From assembly GCA_964188305.1 (NCBI GenBank), contig OZ076890.1: DNA of 64,000 nucleotides, one strand, 5' to 3'. This DNA is from Podarcis bocagei (lineage: Eukaryota). Made by a program: the position numbers and the translations under genes. Positions 33,559 to 54,309 of this stretch are shown piece by piece; position 1 is the first letter of the stretch, and every line of letters begins with the position of its first letter. The notes below the pieces were generated by a model that was not told where the DNA came from, did no database searches, and was given only the letters and a program-made list of their open reading frames with translations.

Positions 33559-34059
33559 CGTGTAAAATAAAGAGATAGATAAAAAATCAAAATTGCATGG
33601 GATCCTGGCTGTGACAACATGTTTTTTAATGTAATAAATGTTGCTGATGGATATTAAGTTTGCACCTCTGACATCAATATCATCAAAGTTTCCTTCATTA
33701 GCCAATCAGCTGCCTCTACAAACTTCATTTCCTACTGTGACATCACAGTATATCAGCTAGTGCTGAATGGATAATGGATGAGCAAGGATGAATGGTCTGA
33801 CTCAGAATAGTACAACATCCTATGCTCTGGCACTGGCCTGTGTTGTGCATGAGCCTATAAGTTGTGGGAGGTTTTGCAACCTCTCTTTCAACAGAACTAA
33901 AAAAATGTATGCAAATTGTGTGTCAAAGTTGTGAACCGGACCACTTGTCCAAAATGTCCAAAAACTGAACATAAGAGGCATAACATGGAAAATGCTTCCC
34001 AGCTGGGATGCCATTTTGATCTAGAGCTGGCACTGCAGCATACAGTTTCATCCTGACAG

Positions 34060-34191
34060 TTAGGAAGGATAAAGGACCGCAAGAAGAAAGAGGCGAGAGG
34101 ACAAGGGAAAGCTTTTATGAGAGAATCAAATCCAGCCATCGTATTGGCAGGCCCTTAGCTCGTAACAATAAAAGTAAATATCACTATAAAG
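34060..34191 (+). other. Candidate 132-nt phase 1-1 exon, product unrecognised
   Basis: tttcatcctgacAG acceptor, AAG|GTAAGT consensus donor, open frame RKDKGPQEERGERTRESFYERIKSSHRIGRPLARNNKSKYHYK. Confidence 0.3.
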
Positions 34192-35275
34192 GTAAGTTAT
34201 GAATTCACTTGAGAACGATCTTTGGTATGACAGCCCTGTGGAAGATAAACACCCCAATACATAACAACATCATGGCAAGCGGAACACTGAACAAATTAGT
34301 CAATTATTTTCCTGGATTATTCTGCTGCGACCTGGCAACAAAGGAAAATATATTCAAAGGGCTGGTGTTTACAAGCTTGACAAATATTCCCAAACCTCCT
34401 TTGTTACTTTTCAGCACCAGTGAAAGTCAGCTTGTCAGATAAGGGGGGGGGAGAGAGAGAGCAGACAATAAAGCAGCTCCCCCACCCCACTTTTTGTCAC
34501 ATTAATCGAGGGCTGCCTTCCCCAACCTTGTGCCCTCCAGATGTTTTGAACTACAACTCCCACCATCCTTGATGAAGCTGGTTGGGGCTAATCACTGCTG
34601 GTGCTGGCCACCCTTAAAATTCAATTAAGAGGCCAGAAATTTGCCTCCAGTTCATAAGTAGCTGATCTGAAGGAGCCATCATCTTACCTGACACATTCAC
34701 CTGCCAGCTGGTATTCAGCAATAGAAAAGGAAAAGTCTGAGTTTACTCTAGTTTTACCCTGGAGAGAGGTGAGCTACAGCTGATTTTTGCAAATGGCCTG
34801 CAGACTTGCTGGGCCCCGTGTGGGATATTTTACCACTTTGTGACTGTTTCCAGCACTGCTTCATCTCTAGGCTTTCATGTTATTCCTGTGCCGGACACAT
34901 TTCTATAAAATACCTAGAATCAGCCTCTTTTTCTGGTCAGGAATAATGGCCTGGGTGGTGGAGAGGAGCCACAGAGCCATCTTCCTAAGATCAACATCAC
35001 TGTTTATTACCTGGATGAGGATGATGATGGGTGGGCAGGGGGCAGGGCTGTGCAGGTGCACTGGAAGGAGCACCAAATTGGATCCATTGATGTGCCTCCA
35101 TGTCACTTCCCTTGTAGCTACACTCCCATGTCCCAGGTTCTGTCCAGGTAAGAAGTATTGATGCTGTTGTAGAGAGGATGACTTTGTCTCACCACACAGG
35201 CCATTCCTTGCTGTCCTGCCAGCAGGTGAAAACTTTATTGTTCCAAAAGGCTTTTGGGGAACTGTCAGTTTTTAA

Positions 35276-35383
35276 AATAAAAAAATTTTCTTCCAGTAGC
35301 ACCTTAAAGACCAACTAAGTTAGTTCTTGGTATGAGCTTTCGTGTGCATGCACACTTCTTCAGATACACACGGCTACCTATCT
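35276..35383 (-). mobile_element. Penelope-like element remnant (same family as 27779)
   Basis: Near-identical to 27779-27960; 15-bp TSD actgtcagtttttaa (35261-35275, 35384-35398); short inverted terminal piece acacggctacctatct. Confidence 0.85.
35330..35367 (-). ncRNA. Minimal type I hammerhead ribozyme motif
   Basis: Exact reverse complement of 27867-27904. Confidence 0.85.
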
Positions 35384-35456
35384 ACTGTCAGTTTTTAAGG
35401 AAAGGACTGGGGCTGTGATGTTTTTATTGCAATGCTCTCTCTATAATTTTTATATA

Positions 35457-35787
35457 CAGTGCTTTTTTATTTAAAAGAATGTTTAGGGGAACTCTCATTT
35501 TGACTCAAGAAAATCATCATTTTGTAGTTCAATTCAGAAAAAATAAACACAGTAAATACAACGAAACTGACCAATCACTGTGTTAGATTCCAACTCCTAC
35601 TTCACACATTAAATTTTTACTTCTTCCTTGAGATTCAGGAAATGAGGCCTCCATTGGGGGTAGCAATGGAACTGATGATTCACCATGCTAGAGAAGAAAC
35701 TAATTTTTAAAATGTTTTTAGTTTCTTCTCTCATTAGATTCACAAAATGTTTAGGGGTATGCGTCCCCCTAAAAAAAGAGAGCACTG
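35457..35787. mobile_element. hAT-type MITE
   Basis: TIR cagtgctttttt / aaagagagcactg; perfect 8-bp TSD tttatata (35449-35456, 35788-35795). Confidence 0.85.
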
Positions 35788-35797
35788 TTTATATATA

Positions 35798-36023
35798 CAG
35801 TGGTACCTCTGGTTACACATGCTTCTGGTTATGAACTCTGCTAACCCAGAAATAGTTGCTCCCAGTTGTGAACTTTGGCCTGGGATGTGAGTGGAAGTCA
35901 TGTGCCAGAGACACACACGCAGCAGGAAACACCATTAGCGAAAGCGCGCCTCAGGATAAGAACGGTTTCAACTTAAGAACAAACCTCCAGAACGAATTAA
36001 TTTCGTAACCAGAGGTACCACTG
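35798..36023. mobile_element. Tc1/mariner (Tigger/pogo-like) MITE
   Basis: Perfect TIR cagtggtacctctggttac / gtaaccagaggtaccactg with TA TSD on both sides. Confidence 0.92.
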
Positions 36024-36131
36024 TAATAGTTTTTAATTATTGCATTTTCAGTTTTAGCTGTAAACTGCTTTGAGTCCCTGTCAGGAAAAAAAGGCAGGAT
36101 ATGAATAGATATAATAATAAGAAATGAATAA

Positions 36132-36566
36132 TGCCAGGGAACTGCCATTGGAGCTAGAGGCGGAGGGAAGGCTCCAGAGGGATGCTGGAGAGGGTCCCAG
36201 TAGGGAGAGAGGCAGCCCATCTGCTGGGGAAGGAAATCAGCGTAACACCAGTGGAGAAGGGGGGCAGATGGGGGAATCAGAGAGGAGGCTCCAAGACTCC
36301 TCGCCGGAGACCAGCGGAGAGAGTATGGGTACTCCGCTGCCCACACCCTCCCTGCGCAGAAGACTTCCGTGCAGGCAGAGTAGGAGGAGACTTGGTGTCA
36401 AACAACTTTTATGCTGGAAAAGGTTCAAGAAACGCCCACTGACGGATTCTGCCAGCGACTGAGACAGTCACGATGCTGGAGGCTGTTCAGTCAGAAAGGG
36501 TTCAGCCAGGTAACCTAGCCATGAGTGGCGCCAACGTACGCACGAGCAACCCCTAAACCCATTACA
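36132..36566. mobile_element. Solo LTR (probably Gypsy-type)
   Basis: GC/CpG-rich block with TG...CA ends and 5-bp TSD aataa (36127-36131, 36567-36571) inside an A-rich LINE tail. Confidence 0.7.
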
Positions 36567-39184
36567 AATAACTAATAAATAAATAATAATTCTGTTTGTT
36601 GTACTATGTTTATTCATGCTTTTGGCATATTTGTGGAAATACATACGCTTCCTTTGTTTTGGATTATGTAGAGGCAGCAGTACCAGCAACTGCATGACAA
36701 ATACATACCCTACTCATTCTACTGCAAGCACCAAGTGTCAGCTTTCAAATCATCTTTTTGAATCTTTTAGGTGATTTCAAAAATGACCGTAATCAACAAT
36801 GCATATGTGAAAACATTAAATAACTTGGAGTGTGGAACAGCAATCAATCAATCAATAATTTAACACACACAAATCAATAATTTAACACAAACCTTTCAAG
36901 TCTGCAAAACATTTTTTTTATATATAGCAAGAAAAGTGGGGGAAGCAAACAAACAGCTGGATGCATTGGTAGGAAAAACAAACAAGCATAGAATCACTTT
37001 TTAAGGAATAAACACCAAATCATGCTATGGTCTGGTATCACAATAACTACCATTTCACATATAAGCATACTGAAAACAATACTTTGTACCAGCATTTATG
37101 TGCACACATAATGTCTGAGATCCAATGTTATTGATTTACCAGTCTGCATCTGTACTGGAACTATTTTTAAAGTGCTTTCATATATAGAATGGCTTAAAAA
37201 TGTTGGGTTTGTTTTTATATATTGAATTGTTTTTAATTCTTTTAACACTTCTTTGTTTTATGACTAATTGTTTCATTTCCTTTAATAAATGTATATTTTA
37301 TTGGTGTGACAGCTTATGGTAATGGGTGGTCAGAAATCTCATAACTAATGTCAGTTTGCCAGTGGAACAGTTTACCACTTGCACAACAGAATTTCCCTTA
37401 TTTTGTGGCCCCATACTTCTGTGTGTCCCGCTCCAATCAGCTCTAGATGAGTATGACTTAGCTGGATATCACTCTTAGGCTGAAAACTGCAACCCCATTA
37501 TTTCAGGGGCCCATACATGCAGCAAATTCCATAGGTCACCAAATAATGAAGAGTGCAGTGTATTTTTTATTGTTCACTGCACTACTTCTAACATAGAATG
37601 AACAGCTTTAAATCATTTTTACTTTATATACACATGTACTTCTGTTTTTCTTCTTCCCTGGATGTGAATAATCCAGAGGCTTTGGGGATGTGGGGGGCAG
37701 TATAAGCACTGGTTATCACAGCACTTAGAAGGTACCAGTATAAAAATTACTATTCTTTTACAATAATAATAAGATTTTTCTCCTAGTAAGTGCACATTGA
37801 ATATGTTTCCTGAACAGATTAATAACTCAAATGTGTAGATCTTTCCTTCCTATTCATAGGACTTAATATTCCATCACAAATGATTATTGGTACCATCATG
37901 TTACCATCTCAAGCAAAAAATATTTTCCTAGCTTAGGTATTAGTTCAGGTGATAAAACACCCCTCTCTTCATAGTCATTTAATTTCTCTTTTCTGTGAAT
38001 TTAAACCATAGTTGAAATTTCACTTGCTCTGAAATATGTGGGCAGAGGGTGTGTGTGTGTGGGGGGGGGATTCTTGAAGGATTCTGATTTGTAAAGCTCT
38101 AATGCCCCATCTCACCAAACTCTCTGTCAGGAAAGAAATCTGTAACCTGGGTGGGATGGAAAATGAATATCTCTATTTCTAACGCACAGTTTCCTAATGG
38201 TCATGGTCGTATACTCAATAAAAATAGCAAACGTGGGCCAAAGCTCGGTCCTCAAATTTGAATGGTGCATTCATTCTCCACAAAAATGGAAAATGAGTTT
38301 CTGCTGCTTTGAGGGAAGAGGAAAATTTCTGTGAAATGTGCAGGGTAGGGTGCTCTCCTTACACTAAGAAAAGCTTCCCTTATTGCTGATAGTGAATGGG
38401 GATTTTCCAGTCCAATAATATTGTTTATTTATGTTGCACACACTTACAAGATACCCTGACATTTTACAGTCATATTTACTGGCAATGCTGATTTACGGTA
38501 TATATATTAAATCTATGAATAATATATTATAAATCCTATAGATTATATAGATTATTATTTATATATAAAATATGTTAAAATAGCCTTTTCAGCCTGTTTC
38601 CATAATCCTCCTTCTATCTTAAATAAAAGGAGGAAAAATGATATCCTACCACCATGTACATCTTTTTCTTACTCTTGAAACAGCCTCCTTCTCTGGTATT
38701 CTGAACTTCATCTTGAAAGTGAGTCCCTTTCTATAGCACTATGAACTAAGCTCTTGGTTGGTTTATAACCAACTAATTCATAATAAGAGTGAACCCTTTG
38801 AAATCCATGAACTTAAATTATATCCCCTTATTTCAATGGGACTACACAGAGTAATCTGGGAAGGGATGTGAAATTTTCAGCAACCCATGTCTGTCAAGCC
38901 ACAAGCTGTTTTGTGTGACTGGCTGCAGATGAGATCTCTTGCTTCTCTCAAGCACCAAGTACTAAAATGCTTTATGGTAATTTCTTCCTAACCTGCACTG
39001 GGACACATAAAGCTCTTGACCACAGTAAACAGCCCCCCCGCCATGTACATGGTGCCCTGCCAAGTTGCGATATCAATTAATACATTTAGTTGTTTTTGAT
39101 CTCATATATCTTAGAGAAGTTGCTGTGATCACATCTTGCTGTCCTTACCCTAGGAAGGCTGGCTGATGTCGTTGGAGAGATGAC

Positions 39185-39395
39185 ATGAGCAGATTGGAGA
39201 ACTGGGCCAAAACTGACAAAATAAATTTCAATGGGGCAAATGAAAAGTTTTGAACTTAGGCAGGAAGAACCAGCTGCACAAATATAAGACAGGAAACACC
39301 TGCCATGTGAAAAGAATATTGGGGTCTTAGTACACTGCAAGCTTAATATGAGTCAACAGTGTGATGCAGTAGCAGCAGCAAAATATATATTGTAA
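39185..39395 (+). mobile_element. CR1 ORF2 (post-RT) internal fragment
   Basis: Degenerate RLENWAKTDKINFN..K*KVLNLGRKNQLHKYK...CEKNIGVLVHCKLNMSQQCDAVAA. Confidence 0.85.
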
Positions 39396-40282
39396 GGATA
39401 TTCTGTTGTAAGGGTATTCTTCACCCACTCAAGTGAAAGGGAATGCAAATGAGAACGCCAGAAATTAACAACCACCAGCTTCAGAATGGTAAATCTCCTA
39501 GTGCTCCAGCAGTTCTTGTTATGATAAAACACATCTTGCATCTGTAAGCATGATTTTCAGTAAATGGGCAACCCTAATAAGCAGAAACACTGGGACCAAC
39601 TTATGTATATGGCAACCTAGTTAGTTTCCGTTAGGGACATTTATGTGCATTATATTTTCATATTTATTGCTTTAAAAACCTGTATCAAACCTCTTTATTC
39701 TATCCCAGTCTTCTATTTGCAGAAGTTAAGTAAACTGCACTTTTAACCTACTTGGACTGAAAACCTAAATTGTGAGCTTTGCAGAGCACAATGTATCAAC
39801 TTTGAAAAGAAATAGTTCCAGCCTTAGTGACTGCATAGCAACCAGAATAGAAGTTACATTTGTGTGGTGTGTGTGTGTGAATGGGTTTTGCTTAGAAGAA
39901 GGTTGAAGACAGGAGTGGCCAGGGATATGTCCACTAAGCTGGGCCTGTGATGTAGGCAGTCTGGACTTTTTGTTACTTCCCAATGCATGTGAAGAGAACA
40001 ATACTGAGACATTCAAACCTGGATCTTGGCACAGAAGAATACGTTTTTCACAAGCCATTTGGATTTCTGGATTCTAAGAAAGGAACTTTTGGCCGTTGAG
40101 ACATGTGACTATAAAAACAGATGGTTCTCAATGGTGAATTGGGCAAGAACCAATTCACAAAGGGATTACAAATTCAGAGAATACTACCCAGCAGAGATTT
40201 CAGAAGCCAACGTGTGACCATGGTACCTTTTCCTTCTGCCTTCTTATTTTTCCTTTTTTAAATGAGGCTGCCTTTCCAAGAT

Positions 40283-40285
<3 letters not shown>

Positions 40286-40335
<50 letters not shown>

Positions 40336-40351
40336 GTGTGTGTGTGTGTGT
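40286..40351. repeat. (CT)n(GT)n microsatellite
   Basis: Direct observation. Confidence 0.95.
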
Positions 40352-40644
40352 CTGTCCCACTCCTTGGCTTGAGCATGGATTGGTTTGGTTAGTGTGCTAG
40401 TAGGATAATTCCTTCATTCCAAACTTTATTCCACCTTTACAGGGCTTTTCTTTTTACAAGGAATATAAAGGTCCCATTTTAGGCAATAAAAGCTTTGAAT
40501 TCTAATGATTCCCTTGTACCACCCTAGTATCCTTGCATTTCCTCTTGCAAAGAAAGATTGTGATCGAGGACCCGATCCCCGCTTGGGGAATAAAGACACG
40601 TGGACACAGAATGTAAGGTTAATGGGTAAGGTAAAGGCCACAAC

Positions 40645-40650
40645 TTTATT
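40645..40650 (-). promoter_or_regulatory. Putative polyadenylation signal of the YR element
   Basis: AATAAA on the minus strand ~90 nt from the terminal CA, followed by U-rich sequence. Confidence 0.55.
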
Positions 40651-40989
40651 GATTACAGCATGTGAGAAGGTATTGGCTTAGGCATTGGACCACGGAGCAT
40701 TAGACTCCACCCACTCGTAGAAGGGTGAGTCTGAGGAGGCGTTAACCACCAGTAGGGGAAGCCTGTTGATACTAATCCAACTATAGGCTCTCTTCCTGAT
40801 GTCACCGAGGGTCGTGCCATGGCCCCCCGCCACATGGGCATCAGACAGGATCCACGACCGCCAGATTCCTTTAGTGGAATACCCAAAATTGCCGGGGAAG
40901 GCGATGGCCACACCTTGCCCCCCGAAACACCAACAACACATTCCAATGCCTAACCGCCACCCGAGCCAAAAGGCTCGCCGCCAATACCC

Positions 40990-41564
40990 TCACAGCTGCA
41001 ACCAATCCCTAAGACTATTGGATATGTTAGCCAGCCATATGTCGTTTCCCCGATTTGAAAGATGAACGCCGTCATCCCGGAATAGGGTCTGGTCGCCAAT
41101 CTGGATATCATCATGAGATATAACGAGGCCATTCATAAAATGCACTTTGCGCACTACCGCGTGATTCAAGAGTTTCCTGGATTTCTCGATAGCCATAATG
41201 TTATGTGCACCGCGCCAAACCTTTCTCTTCAAGAGAGAGGACCAGAACAGGGTTGTTATGGGGAATAAGGCAGCCAACTCGTCCAAGACCTTACTCATGT
41301 TCCACAACAAGTCTACACTCTTCCTGCTAGCCAGGTCGTTCTCCCCCAGCTGAATGATTAGAATGTTAGGGGGGCCCAACAGTGAAGCTTTTGCCTTCAG
41401 CAGTGGCATGAGTTCCTGCCAGCGCATGCCCCTTCTTGACAACCAGGAAACTCGCACCCACGATGGTAGCCCCAGATTAGGCATGAAGCCGGAACTTGCT
41501 GCCTAGAGGCGGGCCCAATGCACGATACTGTGGCCGCAAATCCACACTGGACTACCGAAGACAG
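40990..41564 (-). pseudogene. SGNH/GDSL hydrolase ORF of the YR retrotransposon (one premature stop at 41503-41505)
   Basis: Block I VWICGHSIVHWA (GHS at 41527-41535), block II RRGMRW, block III IIQLGEND, block V DDGVHL, all in one frame. Confidence 0.9.
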
Positions 41565-42275
41565 CTAAGAATAAAGAAAGAAAAGACAGGTAAGTGAAGC
41601 GTTCTCAGAATACTTTTGTAGGCATTCGATTTCCAGCAGCCCATCTCCTTGATCCTGTCTGCCAGAAGGCCCATGTGTGTGGCCGTTGTGGCCACACCAA
41701 TCCTATATGAATGTGCCGTGTAGTCTTTGGAAGGGAAGCCGCAGGCATCTATCACTTTGCGAAGTACCCTGGTGAACTGGTGCCTCATCAATTGGGATCC
41801 ATCCTCATGAATAAAGAGCGGGCCAAGGCCGGGTGGTCTGAGGTAAAGGTATCGCCTGGTGTCATTTACTGGGTATGGGCCCTTCTGGCCGGAGACCTTG
41901 AGTTGGACTATGGTGCCCTTACCACCCTGGTCCATCTTAGACTGACGCACCCACACCATCACACCTGAACTGGACACGTGCACGTCCTCCAGGAGGAGGC
42001 CGCACGTTTTCCCACTTGAGGTAGCTTATGCTACCACCTCACCGACCCTAAAGGCACCAAAGAAGGCTATAGTGTATGCTGCAGAGAACAGCTGGGCCTC
42101 AAACTTGGACCAGCAAATTGACCTAAGTTTCATACGTTAGGGGAAAGGGACGATACTTTGGACCTGAAACCCGTGAAGTCGCACCATACTTTCTTATAAG
42201 ACCTGAGGGTAGAGGGTGCAACAGACGCAAATACTCCCTTGATCACTTCGTGTCTCCAAAGTTCCATAGGTGATC
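41552..42275 (-). pseudogene. Tyrosine recombinase (frameshifted, partly deleted)
   Basis: SVAPSTLRSYKKVW N-terminal part; AFFGAFRVGEVV (catalytic Arg); SKMDQGGKG; AHSYRIG (HxxR); MGCWKSNAYKS. Confidence 0.92.
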
Positions 42276-42349
42276 CGGTAAGGGTTCTGGCAGCAGCTGA
42301 GCCCAAGGTGCTAACGGCACAAATGATTGAAGTAGGCGAGACCCCTCTC

Positions 42350-42830
42350 GGAACGCGATGACTGCTAGCCAGTATGTTAACCACCACCTGGTTATCAGTT
42401 CTGAAGCACCTGGCAATTCCGGATCTCCTCGGTCCATATGTGAACAGCCACAACTATGAGAAAAAACTCCAGAAAAGTAAGATTCCGCATGATGGCCTCC
42501 CCTTGCCACTCCGCTGGCCATTGTTGCACGCACCAACGTCCCTTAAAGAACAGACCAAAGGCCAGGGACCCTGCCAAATTGGGGTGGACCTGGAAATCAG
42601 AGGCTACTTAAGGATTTCCTGCGATAGGGAGACTCCGTTGCAGTGTTCCAGAAATCTGATCCACATCTCAAGGTCTGCCTTGACCGACTTGGGGAGTCTT
42701 GCTCTATGGTGCGGATGTTTGAAGGCCCGCTGACAGCCTGTCTAAGCAGGAGCAAAATGGGTGGCCCAGTGAAACTACCTTACACGCAAAGTTAAAATGA
42801 TATAGCAAGGACTGGACCTGTCTAAGAGTG
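42350..42830 (-). pseudogene. RNase H domain (decayed)
   Basis: AGSLAFGLFFKGRW...NLTFLEFFLIVVAVHIW...TDNQVVV, typical of DIRS/Ngaro RNase H. Confidence 0.88.
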
Positions 42831-42859
42831 ACCTATTTATTTATATATATATTTATTTT

Positions 42860-43650
42860 AGGGGAAGGGTTTGATGAATTGTTTCCTTAAGGGCAATTAT
42901 TTTCTCCTCTAGCAGGCGGGCGGATTGAGCTGCTGTGTCAAGCTCTATACCCAGGTAAGTAAGGCGCGTTGTGGGTCCGTCTTATCTGCCTCGACGGGAA
43001 CTCCCAGCTCCTGGGCTAAAGCTGAAAAGGCCTCCAGAAGGGGTATTGGGCTTCCCAACGAGTAGAAAGTCACTGAGGTAACGCGTTACCCCAGGTGAGT
43101 TGGTTCTGTAGCGCAAGGCCCAGTCCCAAAAGGTGCTAAATGTCTCAAAGGTCGAGCAGGCTACAGATCAACTCATCAGCATAGCCTTGCCAATGTAATA
43201 TTTCCCTTGAAATTTGAGTCCCAGCAAATGGAGGTCATTGGGATGAACCGGCAATAGACGGAAGGCTGACTCTGTGTCACATTTTGCCAAGAGTGCCCCA
43301 TGACCAAAATTCTGGATAAGTCTTACTGCCTGATCGAAGGTGGCATATTTTACTGAGCACAATTCCGGTGGAATGGCATCTTATACTGGGCCACCCTTAG
43401 GGTAAGAAAGGTTGTGGATTAATCTGAACTCACCATGGGTCTTTTTGGGTACAATACCAAGGGGCGAGATGTGCAGGTTTGGGATAGGGGGTTGTACGAA
43501 TGGACCAGCCACCCTCCCTGCGGCCACTTCCTTAGCTATTTCCTTTTCTGCAACCTCAAGCGTTTCCCTTACTGACATCTGGTTAGGGGAATCCTTTGCA
43601 ATTAAAGAGTTGGTTACTGGTATTCTGAAACCCTCTGAAAAAACCCTTCC
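42860..43650 (-). pseudogene. Reverse transcriptase (stops, catalytic YLDD mutated to YLSD)
   Basis: EGFRIP; KEVAAGRVAGPF; ISPLGIVPKK..EFRLIHNLSYP; AKCDTESAFRLLPVHP; YLSDF at 43069-43080. Confidence 0.93.
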
Positions 43651-43728
43651 AAAGAAAGGATGCTGCGCTTTCGTCTGGATAGCTAGACAAGAGGTTGCGG
43701 AGAGGAGGGAGCTAGATCAGTGAAAATG

Positions 43729-44436
43729 CTAGACCCGTCTGTTCCCTGCTGCGGGGGCTCCTCTGGAACTAGAATGGTGGAACCCCCGACCTCCCTGAAA
43801 GGGCTGCTTCTCTTTGTAACACGCTGCGGCTGGGTGTACCCCTGCACACCTCTCACACTCGTGCGGATACTTACACGACTGCCTTTGGCCTGACCCCTTA
43901 TTGAATTCCCAACACACCTTGCGCTTTGGCTCGCCTCTTATTGCTTACCCATGCAAAAAGAATCTAATGGCTTCTTCTCAACATACGGGATGACCGCCAC
44001 CTCAGCTGTCTGAAGCTCCCCCTCCAGCTGCTGTTCCTCCTCACCGGCCGACGAGATGCCCGATTCTGGAAGCTGGAAGCTGGACCCTGGACTGCTTATT
44101 CTGTGAAGGACTGAAAGAACTGGACGCAACAGGGTTATTGACACAGGCCGGCGGCCTCTGCGCAGGCAACCCAATGCTGTTCTGAGGACCAGATGATGCC
44201 AAGTGAGCCCGAAACATAGTATGCACTGCCGCCGCTACTGCCTGAGAGCTTGGGCCTGTGCCTGAGAACTGAGCATCGTTGAAGAGGGCGGCAGAGGTGC
44301 CTGGGGGGTCATCAACCTGGGTGAGAGGTGGGCTCTCCGGAACCCCCTGGGTATCTGGCATCATATCAGGGGTAGCAGTGGAGGGCATGGGGTTAAAAAC
44401 GCTGCTCATAATCATCAATGAACGATCTAAAGGCAT
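43729..44436 (-). pseudogene. Gag-like ORF1 with C-terminal Cys/His Zn-finger (frameshifted)
   Basis: P/S/A-rich N-terminus; CWEFNKGS.QRQSCKYPHECERCAGVHPAAAC motif directly upstream of RT. Confidence 0.8.
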
Positions 44437-44744
44437 TTAGGATGTGTGAAATAGGTTTGGGGTTATTATCCCGCGACGAATTACGGCTATTGGCACCCAT
44501 GCAGCCTGAGGTGTGAGCTGATTCCGCCGCACAGTGCTTCCTCTTAGGTGCCATGGATAACGCGCTGAAGCAACTTCCACAAATGCGTGCTACTGTTTAC
44601 AAGCGGTTGTACAGGCACGTGTTATTGATTCTGAAATGAATGTGCTAAATAATGATTGATTTACTTATAATAAATAACGATTCTTCCAAGTATTCAATTA
44701 CATGTTTAATTGTTTATCCAATTAGCATGTGCGTGCGTGTGTTA

Positions 44745-44746
<2 letters not shown>

Positions 44747-44787
<41 letters not shown>
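44747..44787. repeat. (TA)n microsatellite flanking the Penelope-like fragment (resumes 44940-44951)
   Basis: Direct observation. Confidence 0.9.
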
Positions 44788-44789
<2 letters not shown>

Positions 44790-44939
44790 TTTCGTAGATT
44801 TTCACGGGTACAGGAATGCAGGTTTTGGTGTCTTCGGGTATCTTCCCGTGTAAGAGTTGGGGTGTCTAGGCGACGTTTCGACGAGGTCTCACTCGTCATC
44901 TTCAGGCTGGTGCTTTCGGCTTCTTGTTACTAGAACAGA
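44788..44939 (-). mobile_element. Penelope-like element 3' fragment (second family) in a (TA)n tract
   Basis: Hammerhead core followed by ...cccgtgaaaatctacgaaagc-(AT)n; TA repeats on both sides. Confidence 0.7.
44868..44909 (-). ncRNA. Minimal hammerhead ribozyme motif (stem I weak)
   Basis: CUGAAGA-U-GACGAG(UGAGAC)CUCGUC-GAAA-CGUC^ with palindromic ACGU stem III; only 2 bp of stem I evident. Confidence 0.7.
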
Positions 44940-45052
44940 ATATATATATATTCTTCTTTTTTATTTTTATTTTTATTATTTAGTTTATTTTTTATTTATT
45001 TATTTATTTATTATTATTAAAGATGCTTCCTACTTCATATTATAATATTTCA

Positions 45053-45208
45053 TTCAATCCCCTGCAATGCAGGGATATGCAGGGGTCCCATACCGGGATC
45101 AAACCAGCAACCTTGGGCTTATCAGCACCATGCTCTAACCAGTTGAGCTATCCAGGCTCTCTAGAATTGTGTGGGACCCCGAGGGTCATTTAGTCCAACC
45201 CCTTGCAA
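45053..45208 (-). mobile_element. tRNA-Ile-derived SINE with CR1-like tail, in permuted order (tail then head)
   Basis: 45085-45157 reads gcctggatagctcaactggttagagcatggtgctGATaagcccaaggttgctggtttgatcccggtatgggac (tRNA-Ile-like); 45161-45208 matches the CR1 terminus seen at 1021-1070 (ggggttggact.gatg.ccct..ggt). Confidence 0.8.
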
Positions 45209-45292
45209 ACCCCTTTCAAACCCCTTTCTTGACTCGAAGAAAATGTGTGTGTAATGGTGGGGATGGCTGGCGCGGCTGCGTTTGAGCAGCAA

Positions 45293-45345
45293 GCCACGCC
45301 CCCGCGAGCTTCCCTGTTGGGTGCCCAACCAGGGAGGGGCGTGGC
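45293..45345. promoter_or_regulatory. Inverted pair of GC boxes (GGGGCGTGGC), putative promoter of the YR element
   Basis: gccacgcccc...ggggcgtggc with inner tccctgttggg/cccaaccaggga stem, ~60-110 nt inside the 5' terminus. Confidence 0.4.
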
Positions 45346-47188
45346 ACGCCAGCCCTGGAGTTGAAGCAGGGGGCAGAGCATGACGCAGGAATCGTCTCCC
45401 GATCACAACCCCTTCCCTTCCTGGGAGGAGGAAAGGCTTTTCCAAATTGCGTCTCGGCTGGCACAAGCAAGGCTGTTGTTTACAGTTCACTATCCAGTTC
45501 CATGCCCAAATTGGGCTATGGAATGCTCCCCTCCCATATTTCTCTCAAGTGATCTGATAATGAGGGTTTGGCTGGGAGACATCTCCCCCTCACTAAGCAG
45601 GTGTCCTTGAGTGCTCACCAAAGAATCTCTCTCCCCTTTAATAATTTTTGAATGCAATATTTGCTGATTAATTGATGGATAATCTTAAAAACAAAAATAA
45701 AACTAGGAGAAATTTTCAGCACAGCACTAGTTTCTACACATCACCAGAGATTCATTGGCCAAAATATTTACCCTGTGTGTCCATATAAAAATGGCTACCT
45801 GCCAAGTGCTCCACTTAAAGTAATATGTTACAATTTGTTCTTAGAACACACTTCAGTTTACTCAGCCTTGATAACAATGTTGAGACAATGGAGGGTTTAG
45901 CTGCTTATTCAAACGATAACACCTGTTGATAAATAGCATTTCTATATCCCATAGCACTATATCAAAATCCATATTTTGTCAGATACAGTTACTCACTTTT
46001 AGTAGCTTCACCAAAGTTCATTTCAGGCTGAAAGCAATATTACTGAAGTAAGAACACAAAAATTGTTGTAAAGCTTTGTTCTAATTGCCTTAAATTTGCA
46101 TTATACAGTTTCCGAACACTCATATAAACTGTTCTTCTCAGCAAAGTATTGTTTATTTTCCCTAAGATGCCAGCCATGCAGAGATGACTCAAAATGTTCT
46201 AGAACAACCAGAGGGGAAATAAAAATAATAATGTTTCTTCACCTTTCTGCATCTCTTTCCGTCATCAGCACAAAGTCCCTTTCTCCCTAGTTTGTCTTTG
46301 AGGTGTTTCTCTAAAAAACATAAGCTTCATCCAATCATTTCATCCTGGGCTAAGAGTAGGGCAAATACATTCTGGGCCAGAAAATAAATGCTGCTCATTC
46401 AGAAATATGGTTACCCTTATACAATAAGGCTTATAGTGATGTTTGAATGATAAGTTTGTAAACTTAGCTGTATCCAACATTCAAGGATGTTTCAATATAT
46501 TTGAACCTCCTCTCCAAATGTATTGCATTTGTTTTCTTTAAGGAATTAGCCTAAAGAATCACAAAACGTAACATATGGAAATTGTGTAGAAAATACTATG
46601 AAGGTAAAAGAAAAAAGTGGGGACCTTGTATTTACAATAACTGTAATCAAATTTATGATAATAGATTCCAAATACTCTTGTGCTCTTTGTTGCCCTGGAG
46701 CTATTAAAATGAATACATTCTTGGGGGAAATTCCTTCTCTACATATGATCTTATCTGTTCCTTTTGTACTAATGAGGTTTCAGATTTCCATTGTATTTTG
46801 ATGATATATTTGGCCCACAGCAAATGCTATTTCCTTTGAAATGTTTTCCATGTCAGAGATGACATGGAGTCTTCAAAATCCATCAGAAACAAACTAGGGT
46901 TAAATTGTAATCTCTTACATAGTTTCTTGAAGCAGCATAAATGTGCAATTCTAGAAAGGTCTTTATGGCCTACACCTTAGCTATACCTTTTGATTGTCAT
47001 GCTATTTGTGCTTCATTTTTTGAATAAAAACTCAGCTGAATTTGAAGTCCTGGCCTGCTTAATATTAGAGTAGGTAACTGTCTCTGTGTGTTCCAAGTTA
47101 GAGGATGGGTTTAAAATCTAAAGTCCTTTTTTTCTGATGGCATGGCTACCCTTTCAATGGCAGCTACCGCCTAGGACTGATTCAAACA

Positions 47189-47194
<6 letters not shown>

Positions 47195-47259
<65 letters not shown>
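47195..47259. repeat. (CT)n(CA)n microsatellite
   Basis: Direct observation. Confidence 0.95.
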
Positions 47260-47264
<5 letters not shown>

Positions 47265-48164
47265 ATCTCCTGACATTCACAAGCCTGATCCAGATATTTG
47301 CATTTCTGATCCATGTGACTTTCATATATGTTCACACATAATTCTGTTCTGTTCTATATCTGCATTAATCTATGGATTAAAAAAATCTGCACGAAAGTTT
47401 GCATTTAAATAGTGTGTATATAATTTTGGGTGTCTTTTCTTCCAAAGCACCTTTTTAAACATACCCATATGATTTTTCTGAGCTGAGAAATGCATTGGAA
47501 TGATCATGTAAGTGTGAAATCAGATGGATGGCTTATACAGTAATCCATAGACTAGTCAGAGAGGTGTGGATCAGGTCATTTCATATAATTATTTTTTTTG
47601 CAAAGATTGAATTTCTCTAGTATCCCAAGTTTGAAACAGAGTGCCAGCTTCAATTTTGTTAAGGAGGACATACTTTCAGATAACTTGAGATGTGCATATA
47701 AGGATGGACTAAAGAATCCTCTTCATCAATGAGTACTGCAATAAAGTTAATATTTTCTAAGGCTGAACTGACATTGCACCCAGCCTCCATCGATATTCTT
47801 ATCCTGATGAATGAAAGATAATGGTAATGGCATGGTGAGCTTGCACCATTTTATCCTGTGAAGCAGCAGGCTTCTTCAGAAGGTGGCAAGCCCTTTCAGC
47901 CATAAGCAAATGTGAAATGTATTGGAAAATAAAATTTAACTCCAGTTCCCATCTTTAAATCCTTTGACTAATGGACACTGCTATACTGAATTGTGAGCAG
48001 CTATCGTTTGTGATAATGACAGTAGAGGGAGTAAAATGAGACTTAAAAAGCAAAGCAACATGCATTACCACTTTCAGACAATGTACAACACTTTTGATTT
48101 TGCTCTCTACCAAGTTAACCATCCAAATAAAAATGGATGTTTAATCAGGGGGAAATAACACTAA

Positions 48165-48206
48165 CACACACACACGCACGCGCGCGCACACACACACACA
48201 CACACA
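48165..48206. repeat. (CA)n(CG)n(CA)n alternating purine-pyrimidine tract
   Basis: acacacacacgcacgcgcgcgcacacacac; Z-DNA-prone type. Confidence 0.85.
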
Positions 48207-51200
48207 TCTGAGTTGCAAAATGCTGGAGTGGTTGCTGATTATAAAAGTCGCATGGACAATTTCCTACAGGCTTTTACATAAAACATTCTTACTGGTGGTG
48301 TCACAAATGATTTGTACATGCTGGAAAGACTAAAACAACCTATTTAAGTGTAATTCCAATCAATCAGTTCTGTAGATGGTTTCCTAGACACTTTCGATGA
48401 ATCAGTTCTGCATACCGTGGGCTCATCTTGAAAATGTAAACATCTTTCTAAATTGCCCTGGTGGTAGACGGCAATAATAGAAGAGAGGAAAAACATTCAT
48501 ATGCTTCCTGTGGCAGATATTGAAGATTCTGAATTGGATCCTTAAACCTTAAAGAAACAATCTGTAGAAATGGTGAGATTGACCTTACATGCCAAAATCA
48601 AACACAGCAGTAATGGAGTAAAAATGCATAGGACCCACCTGAGAAGGACTCAAAAGTTTTCATTATATTTGTGCACATAAGACATTATGTATTTATTCAG
48701 AAGAAAAGAAATCAGTTTGCTTATTTGACTGCCAATAAATTGATTTTGACACCTAGGTAATTTTGTCTGCCCCTTAAAAGCCACGGGGAACATTTGTCTT
48801 TATAAGAAAACTGACCAACAACAAAACGACAGACTCCATGGGCAAAAATTATGGGTGTTCTAAAACAAAGATAAAGATAATGGATGTCGCCCAAGAAACG
48901 TGTATGCCCCTACCCCACCATTCAGGAGGCACTAACTATTGGGTGCTTCTGAATTTTTCTGACCACCTGGACAGGATTCTTCTGTGATACTGCTTTTCAG
49001 TTTGAAATGTTATTAATATATATATTATCACTGAAAACTGCTTCAAAATGTCTTTTTAATGGTAAGTAGAATAACAATATTCTTAAATAAATAATAAAAT
49101 AAAATGAGACAGCTTAAGAAGAAAAAACACTCAGATTACTCCAAATATTGACTCGTCTCCTCCACTATTATCAAGGTGAAGTAAAATACCTTAAGTAGCA
49201 AACACACAACAATGAATTACTAAACAGGTGAATTCCTGCATGTTAAATGTCAAAAGGAAAGTTAATACAGTTTGCTTACCTGGAAGATACCCCATTGAAC
49301 ACAGTAAAAATTACTTCTCATATATATGCATTGAAGAAGAATAAATTGGAACAATTATAAGAAAAGAGATTAAAATGCAAGGTAAAGAACAGGTGATCTA
49401 TGCTGTTAAATATTCAATGCAATTAGTGTTGAACAGAAAATAATTTCATGCACTACTCTATACTTAATTTATCAATATGATCTCGTACAAGGTCAAATAA
49501 CTGGCTGAAAGATAATGAATTTTCCAGCCATTTATGTAAAGAATTCTAGCATTGAGTGGGATGCAGAATCAATAAGAAAGCAGCTAACATGCTGAATGGA
49601 AACAGTCATAGTTGTTTAATATGTGAGTCAGGAATGGTGCAAGTCTTCAAAAGAAGGAGCTTGCAATACACTTTCCTCCAAGCGGGACATTAGACAGGAA
49701 GGATATATGATATGGCACCTCTCAGTTCACAAGCACTATGCCTTTCCATATCAATAGACAGAGGACAAGTGGAAGAGTGTTCAATTGGTTTTCAGGATGA
49801 GCTGGAGAAATCTTGTACAATAGGGGTGGGACAGGATGGGGTCAGATCTGTTGCCTGAGGCAATGACTTCACCTTGTCTCATTGATGGGCTGCCCCTGCC
49901 TCCAGGTTAAGACTTCCAGGGACATTATGGGCCTCTCCATGAGCAATATGAGAATATTGTTGATCCTTAACTTCATGTTTTACAACATAAATTTCCATTA
50001 AAGTATGAAAGATTCTTTTCCAGTTTCTCAGCAGCTGGAATGCACTTGTATGTCCTATTATTTTAACATCTTTTTGCATCTATGTGTTTGTAGTCTTTGC
50101 CTTTAAAGGAATTGACATTAATTATAAAGTGTAGAAGTAATTTAATATGTCACTGCAGAATTTTACAGCTTGAAACAGCTCATCCTTCAATAATTAAGTC
50201 AATAAAGTTAACTTAATTCAATTTAAACCGTGCTGTTTTTTTAGGCCTTGTGAAGTGATTACAATTAGTAATTCATAATTAGTATTTTATTGATGTCCAT
50301 ACACCGGATTGCCAGGGATCATCAAGATACAACGATGATTGGAGGTAATTTGATAAACATTCAGAACTGTTGCATTAATGACATGCCTCCCAATTATGTC
50401 TAGAGTTAATGAATGCATTTAAATATTATGGAGATGGATTTAAAGGACAGCTCAACCTTAATTATTATACAGTTTTTCCCTCTAACATTCTAATTAGAGT
50501 TCTTCTGGTTATAACCCTTTTGTTTCTCCTTTTTTTAATAGAAAGAATGGAAATTCGGAAAAAGTCATAGGAATGACTATAAAGTTTCGTCAATTAAAAA
50601 AAATCAACATATATCAATAAAAATAATTAGCCAGATTGGACAATGCCTGTCTCACAAATCAACCCATTGTATGAAGGGCAGTTGGTGCATAACCTGTTCT
50701 CTCTATGCTTCCAGTTTGCAGGCTCTGCTATCCCTGCATATCCATGCAGGTACAGAATGTCAAAAGATAATCTGCAGACATAATTCTGCTGCTGTTGTCT
50801 GTTGATTATCGGTTCTTCAGTTGTGACGGTTGAACAGGGTCATTTTGACCCAGAACTATGGAAACACGGCTGCGTTCAGTTAAGAACAATAGTAGAAAAC
50901 CAATATATCCGAACACTGGCGTATGCATTTTCAGTGTTGTCATGCAATGTGTGTGGCAGTCAAAAAGGTAATACTTGTTTAATCCACACTCAGGTGACTA
51001 ATGAGTCCGGGCAAGAGCTTACCAAATGAGCTGGTACATTGTGTGGACAAGTGTTTTGCCTCTTTATTCTGGATGTGGGTGCCAACTATTACCTGAGATC
51101 ATGTTGGAAGCCTCACACAACATATGTGTCATCAAGAAACGAAAAAAGGATGATTGCTGACCACTTTGTTGTAATCTTTACAAGTAGGGAGAAATTTGGT

Positions 51201-51943
51201 TAGGTCCACATTTTAATACGAATCTACTTAGTTTATGCTTCCTGAAACTAAGTGTGCAAACTGAAATGCAGCTACTGTTTGAAATATGCAGGTTTTTTTT
51301 AATTTTTGCAATGTACCAGTAGCTGACCAACCCAAAAATATGTTCAAAATGAATGTGTGTGTGTGTGTGAATGCACACATCAGTGAAAATTTGGCAGCAA
51401 CTGCATATGTAAAAATGTTGTTGTTGTTTTTACAATTAATTACCTACCCTATACCCTAAAGTCCCATGGACAGTTACAACAATCAAACATAACAATTAAA
51501 ACTCAGCATTAATATTAAAGCACAACATCACACAATATTAAGAACAGTTTAAAACAGCTTAAAATTATCAGGAGAAAATCACACTAAAATGCTGAGAGAT
51601 TCTCACAAGGACTTAAAAAACAAAACAAAAAACACTGCTTCAGACTGCAGAAATGTGGCAAATATATTATTGGGAAAATGAGGCACTGAGAGAAACCGAA
51701 GTTGACAGATTTGTCCATCTATACTTTCAGAACCATCTGATATTGTACAGTGAGACTGAGTGACTGGCCTAGGGTCAGCTACACCCTGGCAGTGGTGACT
51801 TCCCAATTGGTAGCTTAGTCTGGTAGCCACTATGTTATAGTTCAAAAGAAAAAGTAACCCATGCTAGTACGGTACTATATCTCACCCTTGCTATAGTGTG
51901 CCATGATCTGATTTTATTTGGGATTTTTGAAAAACAGAAACTG

Positions 51944-52138
51944 GAACATAGGAAGCTATCGTATACTGAGTCAGACTATTGGTTCATCTAACCTAGTAGT
52001 GTCTGCACTGATTGGCATCAGCTCCCCAGGAGTTCAATGGGGGTTCTTTTCCAGTGCTATCTGAAGATGCCATGGCTTAAACCTAGTACTTTATGTATGG
52101 AAAGCAGATCCTCTGCCTCTCTGTTACTGCCCTTCCCA
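51944..52138 (-). mobile_element. Old tRNA-derived SINE (family of 23146)
   Basis: gaacataggaagct...tatactgagtcagac...gtctgcactgattggca is the reverse complement of the 23146 body. Confidence 0.7.
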
Positions 52139-54309
52139 GCTGGGGAAGGGACACTAAGGAATGGTTCAACATTTGTCATAGTATTTAAAAAAGCCCAAAA
52201 CAAAACAAAAACAAGGAGCTAAAACTGAAAGATGCTCAGGAATAACTTTTCATCAATGGCCTTAGGCTACAGCTATAAACAGGGCAAGAGGAAGCCCCAG
52301 GTGGTCATCTATGAAACTGGAGTCGCCTTCTCTTGTACTTGCAAGCGTCAAACTGTCAGTGCTGATAGTTAATAATAACTCTGCTGCTCAGCATGCAAAA
52401 TGGATAGGCACATGAAGGATGCCAGCCACTGTGAGGAATAAGATAAGAAATAAGTAGTCTGCTTGATATATCTATTAAGTTTCACGATTGCATGAATTTG
52501 CTCTGGAAATCACAGTTGAAGCCTCTTCCTTACAGTAAGCTTTGGTCTTTTCTATTTCAACTATATGGGTCTACAGAGTGCAGGACTAATGAGAGTAGGA
52601 AAGCCACCTGGGTATACCAAGTTCATGATTAAAAACGATAATTTGGGAACATCTGTCAGTTTAAAGAAGTTAAAAAACATTCAAGCAGGTTATAGAATGC
52701 TCTCTCTCCACTCCCTATTTCACAAACTGTCAACAAGCTTCTGGACTAACTCTAGTTGTTTAAAATGTAGTTTTTGTCTCAGAACCTTTTCAGGTAAACT
52801 GGTTGTTATTGCATTATTCAGTGTGTGTGTTGCTGCCCTCTTCTGGATGGTTTCAACTTTGTGTTCAAATCCACATAGCCCTGCTAACATCTCTTTGCTA
52901 ACACAAAATTGAACAGACTTCTGGAACAGATTCCTTTTGAGAACCAAGGTACGACTGTACAGGTATAAGCCGGAGGGGGAAATGTTTGGAGTGATTGAGC
53001 ATTTGGGGGAAAGGTCAGTGGAAGATTCTGGGAGTGAAATGTACTAAAGGCTAGGGTGTAGCTACAACAGAGCAGAGCCCAGTTCCATTTCTCCCTTGAA
53101 GCATTATGTACCATAGACTGTTTCTTCCATCCAGCAAGGAAAGACAGTATCTCCATTCCCATAAGTATCCAAAGCATGCAACCATACGCACAGACATAAA
53201 GTAACCTGCCAGCACATCTATTCTCCATGAGTAAATCCTGCATATCACTGTTCAAAGGGGCCAGGTTTAGGAGAGTTCTGTGTGGTTGTGATGATGGTGC
53301 TAGCAGCAGAAAGCAACATAAAGGTGCCTAGTCCCCTCTTTCACCTACCAAGTAGGGTGTGAGTGTACCCTCCTGTTGCAATGCCTTTGCAGCTTTGACT
53401 GTAGTTGAAAGCCAAAGTGTGCTAACAAGCTCCATGGGCAGCTTGTGTATCCATCTACTCCCTGTCGCTTCTGTACCTAACTTTACAGCTAGACTGTATA
53501 CTATCAATAAATGACAGTATGGATACAAGTAATGTGTGTTGTTAGGGCTCTGTGTAATGGGGATAAAATGTATCATTTCAAAATCCTTCATCGTAGGGGT
53601 TTCTGCGACAGCTCAGCAAGCTAAAAGAATAAAAGCTAGTGGATGAAGATCCATGCCCCAAAAGGTGTAGTTACTGTATATTCCTAGTCTGTTACATCAG
53701 TAAGCAAACTCTACTGAGTAGGCTGGAGAAATGAACTTGAAAGAAAGTTGTTCCAAAGATTATATGTAGCAGCAGAGAATCTGGAAAGCTTTACCATATG
53801 GAAAGATTAGAAGGGAAGGGCTGATTTTGCAGAACATGTCGGCATTTTGATTCCAGATTCAAGAGGTGAGCAAGATAGTCACTTCTCTCTCTCTCTCTAA
53901 CTTAGGTGAAGCAGAAATTCCACAGGTAATACTTTTATCAGCTTGGTAGGCAGACATTCAACAGGCAATACTTTTCTATGATATATAGTGATAGGAAATG
54001 TTACACCACTTGAATTTCTTCCTGCCATGCAGTTTTTAATAGTGTAAGAGTCCAGAGAGAATCTGTCTTCCTATATATCCATCCATCTAGCTGAACACAG
54101 AGAGAATTGTGTCTGTCTGAACCATGCTGATATAGAGTTATTTACTGGGCATGATACTGTATCACAAAGCTATACCCAATACGAAAACACAATTTCACGT
54201 GCCATCTAAACAAATGTGTACACTGATATAGTTGGGTGTTTTTTTTTTATTAAAGAAACCTAAATCAATAAATTGAACTACTACTACTATGTAACTGAAG
54301 AACTTGAAT

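Follow-up and report, generated by a model that had tools for sequence, protein, structure and literature searches.

A predicted spliced ORF1-esterase fusion in Ngaro-like tyrosine-recombinase retrotransposons of lizards and distant relatives

Introduction

By what route could an esterase be translated that stands last in a retrotransposon and has no usable start codon of its own? The question is posed by a decayed tyrosine-recombinase element in the window, the whole 64,000-nucleotide stretch of Podarcis bocagei DNA (contig OZ076890.1 of assembly GCA_964188305.1) analysed here. On the minus strand, from about 44554 to 40580, the element carries ORF1, reverse transcriptase and RNase H (RT/RNase H), a tyrosine recombinase (YR) and an SGNH hydrolase, in that order. 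An original prediction, made from the window's letters and their open reading frames, held that the hydrolase is expressed in an env-like manner from a spliced RNA, possibly as a fusion to the gag-like ORF1.

Results

The nearest relatives of the window element belong to lacertid lizards, the closest proteins coming from Podarcis and Zootoca (P0001, 91%). ORF1 (43729..44554, minus strand, as are all features of the element) is broken by frameshifts and stops; it has a basic start at ATG 44554, then a low-complexity N-terminal part and a zinc-finger region near 43920-43815. The zinc finger is the sole match of the ORF1-core profile to the window, the conserved core having been lost from this copy. 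The deletion point lies at approximately 44000..44003, since P0039 aligns from 44100 to about 44003 and P0001 from 44000; past the end of its alignment P0039 has a basic patch and an acidic run, neither of which is found in the window. RT/RNase H (42243..43716), broken by stops and frameshifts, matches the corresponding frames of loci L004, L025 and L037. The YR (41552..42315), also broken, matches PF00589 (E 3e-4), and the SGNH frame (40990..41564) matches PF13472 (E 3.5e-4), with all its blocks present: the serine in G-H-S, the glycine, the asparagine in G-E-N-D, and D-x-x-H. An in-frame stop at 41505-41503 in the esterase exon makes the window copy a dead one. The 3' non-coding region (40580..40989) holds a long-range stem and AATAAA at 40650-40645, with poly(A) addition near 40620 in related copies. 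Upstream of the element lie what we take to be a hammerhead-like motif (44845-44925, minus strand) and a stretch that is presumably tRNA-derived and SINE-like (45050-45160, minus strand); the former, near 44900, folds no better than its shuffles (z 0.0), and a search of the window against Rfam returned no match.

The order ORF1, RT/RNase H, YR is seen both in the fragments of the window and in an intact relative, L037. No methyltransferase follows RNase H: the window RNase H abuts the YR, and ORF2 of L037, with RVT_1 as its only Pfam match, ends there. The hydrolase frame of the window element lies after the YR. In L037, direct repeats of 91 nt form two pairs whose order is the expected one; both pairs are truncated by the contig ends. 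Split direct repeats (A1 ... B1 A2 B2) were found neither within 34000-54000 nor against the whole window for this decayed copy, and we therefore term the element Ngaro-like rather than file it as a member. The record that contains L037, an intact retrotransposon of eukaryote type, bears the title of a bacterial metagenome-assembled genome; L037 itself is almost the same as L021 and L024, and is probably host DNA binned with a bacterium.

The first open in-frame Met of the esterase, 41484, lies past the catalytic serine, and the in-frame ATG at 41625 sits within the YR and is closed by a stop ahead of the exon, so that no open in-frame ATG precedes that serine; this agrees with the original claim that no ATG stands between the end of the YR and block I. 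What does precede the serine, as also claimed, is a branch-like sequence, a pyrimidine tract (41599-41567; 21 of the 24 upstream bases are pyrimidines) and an AG at 41566-41565, the whole feature (41565..41599) overlapping the end of the YR frame. The exon so opened, from 41564, is in phase 1 and in frame with SGNH block I (Trp codon 41544, Ser 41529-41527). By acceptor and donor scores that were hand-made after the sequences had been seen, this AG ranks first among the 289 AGs on the element's minus strand and fourth among the 8702 on both strands of the window.

A profile search at E 0.001 gave 2836 cluster representatives, and closer alignment of the distant matches gave 38 loci in metagenome and genome contigs, whose hosts, to judge from element structure and flanks, would be animals. 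Block I could be placed in 32 of the 38 (L027, L031, L032, L033, L036 and L038, in which it is missing or unrecognised, were left out); together with the window these form 20 families at 75% identity, a count from which three joined copies described below (L022, L026, L035) were withheld. Among acceptors in the 60 nt upstream of block I, the highest-scoring one is in phase 1 in 17 of the 20 families, sitting 5, 14 or 20 nt ahead of the block I Trp codon. The excess has a binomial p of 3e-6 against one third, a figure to be read with the shared ancestry of the families and the late devising of the score in mind. Tiled control windows gave background phases of 279, 308 and 341 and a median score of 0.85, against 5.4 at the real sites. 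A phase-0 best acceptor occurs in three families (L012, L030, L034), of which L012 has a second YAG in phase 1. Conservation of acceptor and phase thus extends to distant families, and the sequences identify the acceptor as a family trait, not a peculiarity of the window copy. One locus, L004 (2413-2483), passes from RNase H almost directly to acceptor and esterase, having kept the acceptor and lost the YR that is present in its relative L009. No relative was found in viral-contig scans with three alignments, in a first metagenome scan or in a tblastn search of phages with the relative P0026, and a protein atlas searched with the N-terminus of P0026 returned no match.

The same position can be recognised in lizard-clade proteins, 52 in number, of which 51 are long enough for the comparison. 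Proteins called on unspliced DNA show a run rich in Phe, Leu, Cys and Ser, which is the translated pyrimidine tract, followed by a residue with a codon that could end in YA and, seven residues ahead of the Trp of block I, by Gly or Ala, precisely the phase-1 position of the window acceptor. A codon starting with G stands at that position in 43 of 51 proteins and at its two neighbours in only 8/52 and 8/51; positions 3 to 5 also show 29-31 of 52, owing to a conserved Val and Ala. Varied upstream sequences converge on this junction motif. In 19 of the 52, a basic, disordered N-terminus of ORF1 type, ending in a Lys/Arg patch and a Ser/acidic run, is joined there to esterases 44-99% identical to each other; in five (P0001, P0002, P0009, P0010, P0052) the YR runs up to the motif, and some other models bring host genes to it. 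These fusion proteins are gene models and may copy each other. The window's own subfamily yielded no model with an ORF1 join, its members P0001, P0002, P0017, P0039 and P0040 joining the YR instead, and the same splicing would thus operate in the window's lizard family by extension from its relatives.

Genomic copies joined at the acceptor were found in two families. L022 and L026 are 91-95% identical to the unspliced L016, L020 and L023, with the identity beginning exactly at the acceptor: compared with L016/L020, 45 of 45 nucleotides are equal from the acceptor on, against 9-10 of 35 before it. L035 compared with L029 shows 42/45 and 8/35, respectively. With only about 64% identity between the L035 family and the L022/L026 family, the join has at least two origins; in both families the copies break at the AG with one base of overlap. 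Where the YR would stand, joined copies have a TATA-like promoter and an ATG, with a short basic exon whose beginning resembles that of ORF1 of the intact L037; none of the three has a match to the ORF1 core, RT or YR. The frame is open in L022 and L026 from the ATG through block I, with stops or frameshifts further on, and L035 has a frameshift within the first exon. L022, L026 and L023 share one end point, but the 3' flanks of L022 and L026 differ. No unspliced, donor-bearing copy of the L022 or L035 family was recovered among the loci, which leaves the 5' side of the join unmatched to a GT. The simplest reading of these alignments is that joined copies are reverse-transcribed spliced RNA, and their first exon would be the ORF1 start of the same element. 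A GACGTCA motif lies ahead of the TATA-like box (L022 762 and 2356, L026 12 and 1692, L023 1628, L035 1399, L032 1306); found upstream of the first exon, it recurs at the 3' boundary of L022, L023 and L026, and could be a promoter element or a recombinase joining site.

Given the conserved phase-1 acceptor, the exact joins in genomic copies and the recurring gene-model junction, the esterase is, in all likelihood, produced as a spliced fusion to the N-terminus of ORF1 and not as a stand-alone fourth protein, much as the original prediction, with its possible Gag-esterase, had supposed. In working copies a fraction of the element's RNA would be spliced, with a phase-1 donor located in the low-complexity N-terminal region of ORF1 and the acceptor where the YR ends; this single intron would take out the ORF1 core and zinc finger, RT/RNase H and YR. 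In the product, the esterase would follow the ORF1 start with its short helices, disordered linker and Lys/Arg-rich patch.

The choice of donor in the original prediction fares less well. The site it named, with intron start 43948 (43943..43951), does exist just ahead of the zinc finger, in phase 1 and in the frame that matches P0001, where the residues at the site are retained; it is one of 26 donor-like sites scoring at least 4.5 on the minus strand between 40500 and 44800. A second phase-1 site, inside the YR with intron start 41922, scores 8.4 against 7.3 for 43948 and serves as the junction in the gene models P0001 and P0002. That the acceptor is real and its main donor is one of these two, giving a fusion with the ORF1 core or with a YR fragment, is improbable, even with five of 52 lizard-clade proteins joining at the YR site. 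A donor at 43948 would keep the ORF1 core, and the core precedes the esterase in just one of 192 homologous proteins; the remaining N-termini are of other kinds (at least 45 residues) in 105, short in 57, YR in 17 and RT in one, while 11 proteins have several esterase domains. Joined genomic copies have neither core nor YR, only the ORF1 start, and joins to the YR fall at several points (P0017, P0031, P0039, P0040), as expected of automatic predictions. The 43948 site is therefore unlikely to be the main donor, and donors probably lie before the ORF1 core. A full ORF1 start is available in three families (L037/L021, L025, L009); in all three, the donor-like site that comes first after the ATG is in phase 1 and before the core, an outcome with a chance of about 1 in 27 and thus suggestive only. 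By analogy, the natural donor of the window element probably lay in the lost part of ORF1. The first donor-like site past the window's ORF1 ATG, intron start 44044 (44039..44047), is in phase 1 in the frame that matches P0039 and is a second candidate. Several long proteins carry two to six esterase domains (P0042, from a gecko, P0060, P0061, P0063-P0065, P0067 and P0078), possibly the products of a domesticated, amplified gene or chained predictions.

It is very improbable that the esterase is instead translated alone, from an upstream in-frame ATG or by re-initiation, read-through or frameshift after the YR, with the pyrimidine tract a mere spacer. Five of the 20 families do have an in-frame upstream Met, so that the ATG whose presence was to count against splicing occurs in a minority; unspliced calls with their own Met are P0006, P0007, P0012-P0016, P0018-P0020 and P0028, and four reading frames overlap in elements of Xenopus according to the available text of PMC9210276. 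Yet the other 15 families have no such Met, its position varies where it is present, and the upstream residues are those of a translated pyrimidine tract ending at a codon pair compatible with YAG. Distances from YR stop to acceptor range between -13 and 177 nt, and all three relative frames are found across families; this free variation excludes a fixed read-through or frameshift from the YR. Independent translation also leaves the exact joins in L022, L026 and L035 unexplained. Barely credible is the last alternative, in which the joined copies result from plain DNA deletion and the gene models from a bias of the predictor: internal deletions are common (ORF1 of the window, the YR of L004) and the donor side is unseen, but the break falls precisely at the AG in two families independently, with a one-base overlap and after similar first exons, and deletion does not explain the phase conservation in unspliced copies.

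Transcripts were sought in RNA reads. Single-cell runs X7 and X8 represent one sample; about 12% of each was read, which gave 817 and 785 reads, respectively, on the window element, nearly all in its 3' region, mostly in the element's sense strand and with poly(A) after the AATAAA. Most are 90-95% alike to the window and so derive from other copies. Depth at the acceptor is only about 1, and at that depth no joint into 41564 was seen; contigs from runs X9 and X1 cross the acceptor region unspliced. The 3' stem (40655-40998, minus strand) has arms near 40998-40942 and 40690-40655 and a z of -4.05, with 0 of 100 shuffles as good. Related sequences retain both arms around a much shorter interior (joints 40689-40936 and 40691-40941), and the summed contig depth of the 3' region in run X1 is roughly a hundred times that of the coding part, which suggests abundant short derivatives of this region. 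In L032 the 3' region forms a 619-nt perfect direct repeat (272-890 and 1975-2593); a promoter-like motif and an acceptor-like tract lie ahead of the second copy.

Structure prediction, proposed at the outset as a check, was run on P0026 and returned two helices (35-69), a disordered linker and a confident SGNH domain with pLDDT above 90, whose Foldseek matches are GDSL/SGNH enzymes. By sequence, the solved structure that matches best is the ZfL2-1 ORF1p esterase (PDB 4C1B, E 4e-5). Of the 192 proteins, 174 have a recognisable block I, and among these the Ser is kept in 160, G-x-N-D in 162 and D-x-x-H in 140. Motif blocks and the modelled fold thus place the domain in the SGNH hydrolase superfamily. 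It is positively charged (net +6 to +12). No membrane-spanning segment was found in five of five fusion proteins, in which the top 19-residue hydropathy is 1.1-1.3, or in the P0026 model.

Discussion

The element is of a known kind. Two Xenopus elements, DIRS-53_XT and DIRS-54_XT, share the order ORF1, RT/RNase H, YR, SGNH, the lack of a methyltransferase and the use of a tyrosine recombinase rather than an integrase, as set out in the available text of PMC9210276. There the hydrolase is a separate fourth ORF of amphibian elements, with no proven function, and the letters "splic" do not occur in that text; here, in contrast, the frame behaves like a phase-1 exon to which the ORF1 start is fused; homologues are found in lizards and also at distant loci on metagenome contigs. 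In their available parts PMC9210276, PMC7192593 and PMC6681497 mention the hydrolase without function or mode of expression, and PMC9341512 and PMC6431247 add nothing further on esterase splicing. The literature searched held no account of a spliced esterase in YR elements, and this mode of expression was not found described there; older papers or Repbase reports may hold one, and the ORF table of PMC9210276 may bear on where its ORF4 begins.

Among other systems there is a likeness to ZfL2-1 ORF1p, in which, as described in the available text of PMC3905857, an SGNH domain lies behind an ORF1 N-terminus with helices and basic motifs; the domain here is likewise positively charged. The likeness is one of architecture and sequence. 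In ZfL2-1 the esterase is fixed in the sole ORF1 protein of a LINE, whereas here it is the predicted alternative, spliced C-terminus of ORF1 in a YR element. The element does not belong with the LINE ORF1p esterases (CR1/L2/RTEX), since its esterase follows the YR instead of lying within ORF1 upstream of RT. The ZfL2-1 esterase has been reported to cleave esters and to bind negatively charged liposomes (available text of PMC3905857). At the most speculative end of what we propose, the fusion might join the ORF1 particle through the shared N-terminus and there bind or cut membrane lipids, in line with what has been put forward for that LINE esterase; the esterase might have a role in assembling the ribonucleoprotein at membranes.

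Comparison with env holds in part. Spliced messages are the usual source of ORF3 products in LTR elements, and GDSL ORF3s, with the esterase last, occur in the bdelloid rotifer Vesta elements, as the available text of PMC5408684 relates; a 3'-terminal accessory ORF reached by splicing is common to these elements, to retroviral env and to the exon studied here. Homology to env was considered and rejected: unlike env, the exon has no Met of its own between acceptor and block I and encodes no membrane-spanning segment, and the donor would lie inside ORF1 coding sequence to give a fusion. What survives of the env-like proposal is the splicing, the product itself resembling a LINE ORF1p-esterase and not an env-type protein. 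Spliced fusion products of this sort would be closer to the multi-exon accessory proteins of retroviruses.

Esterase exons also end several host gene models (P0056-P0058, P0044-P0046, P0035, P0036, P0050, P0051, P0053, P0160), among them TSG101 isoforms in three Podarcis species, zinc finger 638-like and 318-like proteins and a cold-shock-domain protein. Repeated exon capture is a possible explanation. A parallel exists in the LAP2alpha exons of TMPO and ZNF451, where a YR-element exon with acceptor and poly(A) signal was captured as an alternative last exon (available text of PMC4495291); those exons come from a DIRS-like ORF1, unlike the esterase here with the element's own acceptor.

A broader picture, which taken jointly we consider possible but doubtful, is that alternative splicing yields two forms of ORF1 in the SGNH-bearing YR retrotransposons of animals at large, one full and one an N-terminus-esterase; that the second assembles together with the first and lends the particle a surface able to bind or cut lipids, a membrane route that needs no envelope and converges on the LINE ORF1p-esterase; that the spliced RNA becomes a mobile, non-autonomous element in its own right; and that the same acceptor has repeatedly given an esterase last exon to host genes such as TSG101.

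The Ngaro-like hydrolase has so far been annotated as a separate ORF with no proven function. Should it prove to be a fusion to ORF1 made by splicing, expression and assays would call for a protein with an N-terminus other than the annotated one, and removing a single AG would switch the esterase off with RT untouched, making its role directly testable. The finding, if true, would mean programmed splicing in an order of retrotransposons where the literature searched showed none, would widen the known host range of the esterase-bearing group and would explain the host gene models that end in its exon.
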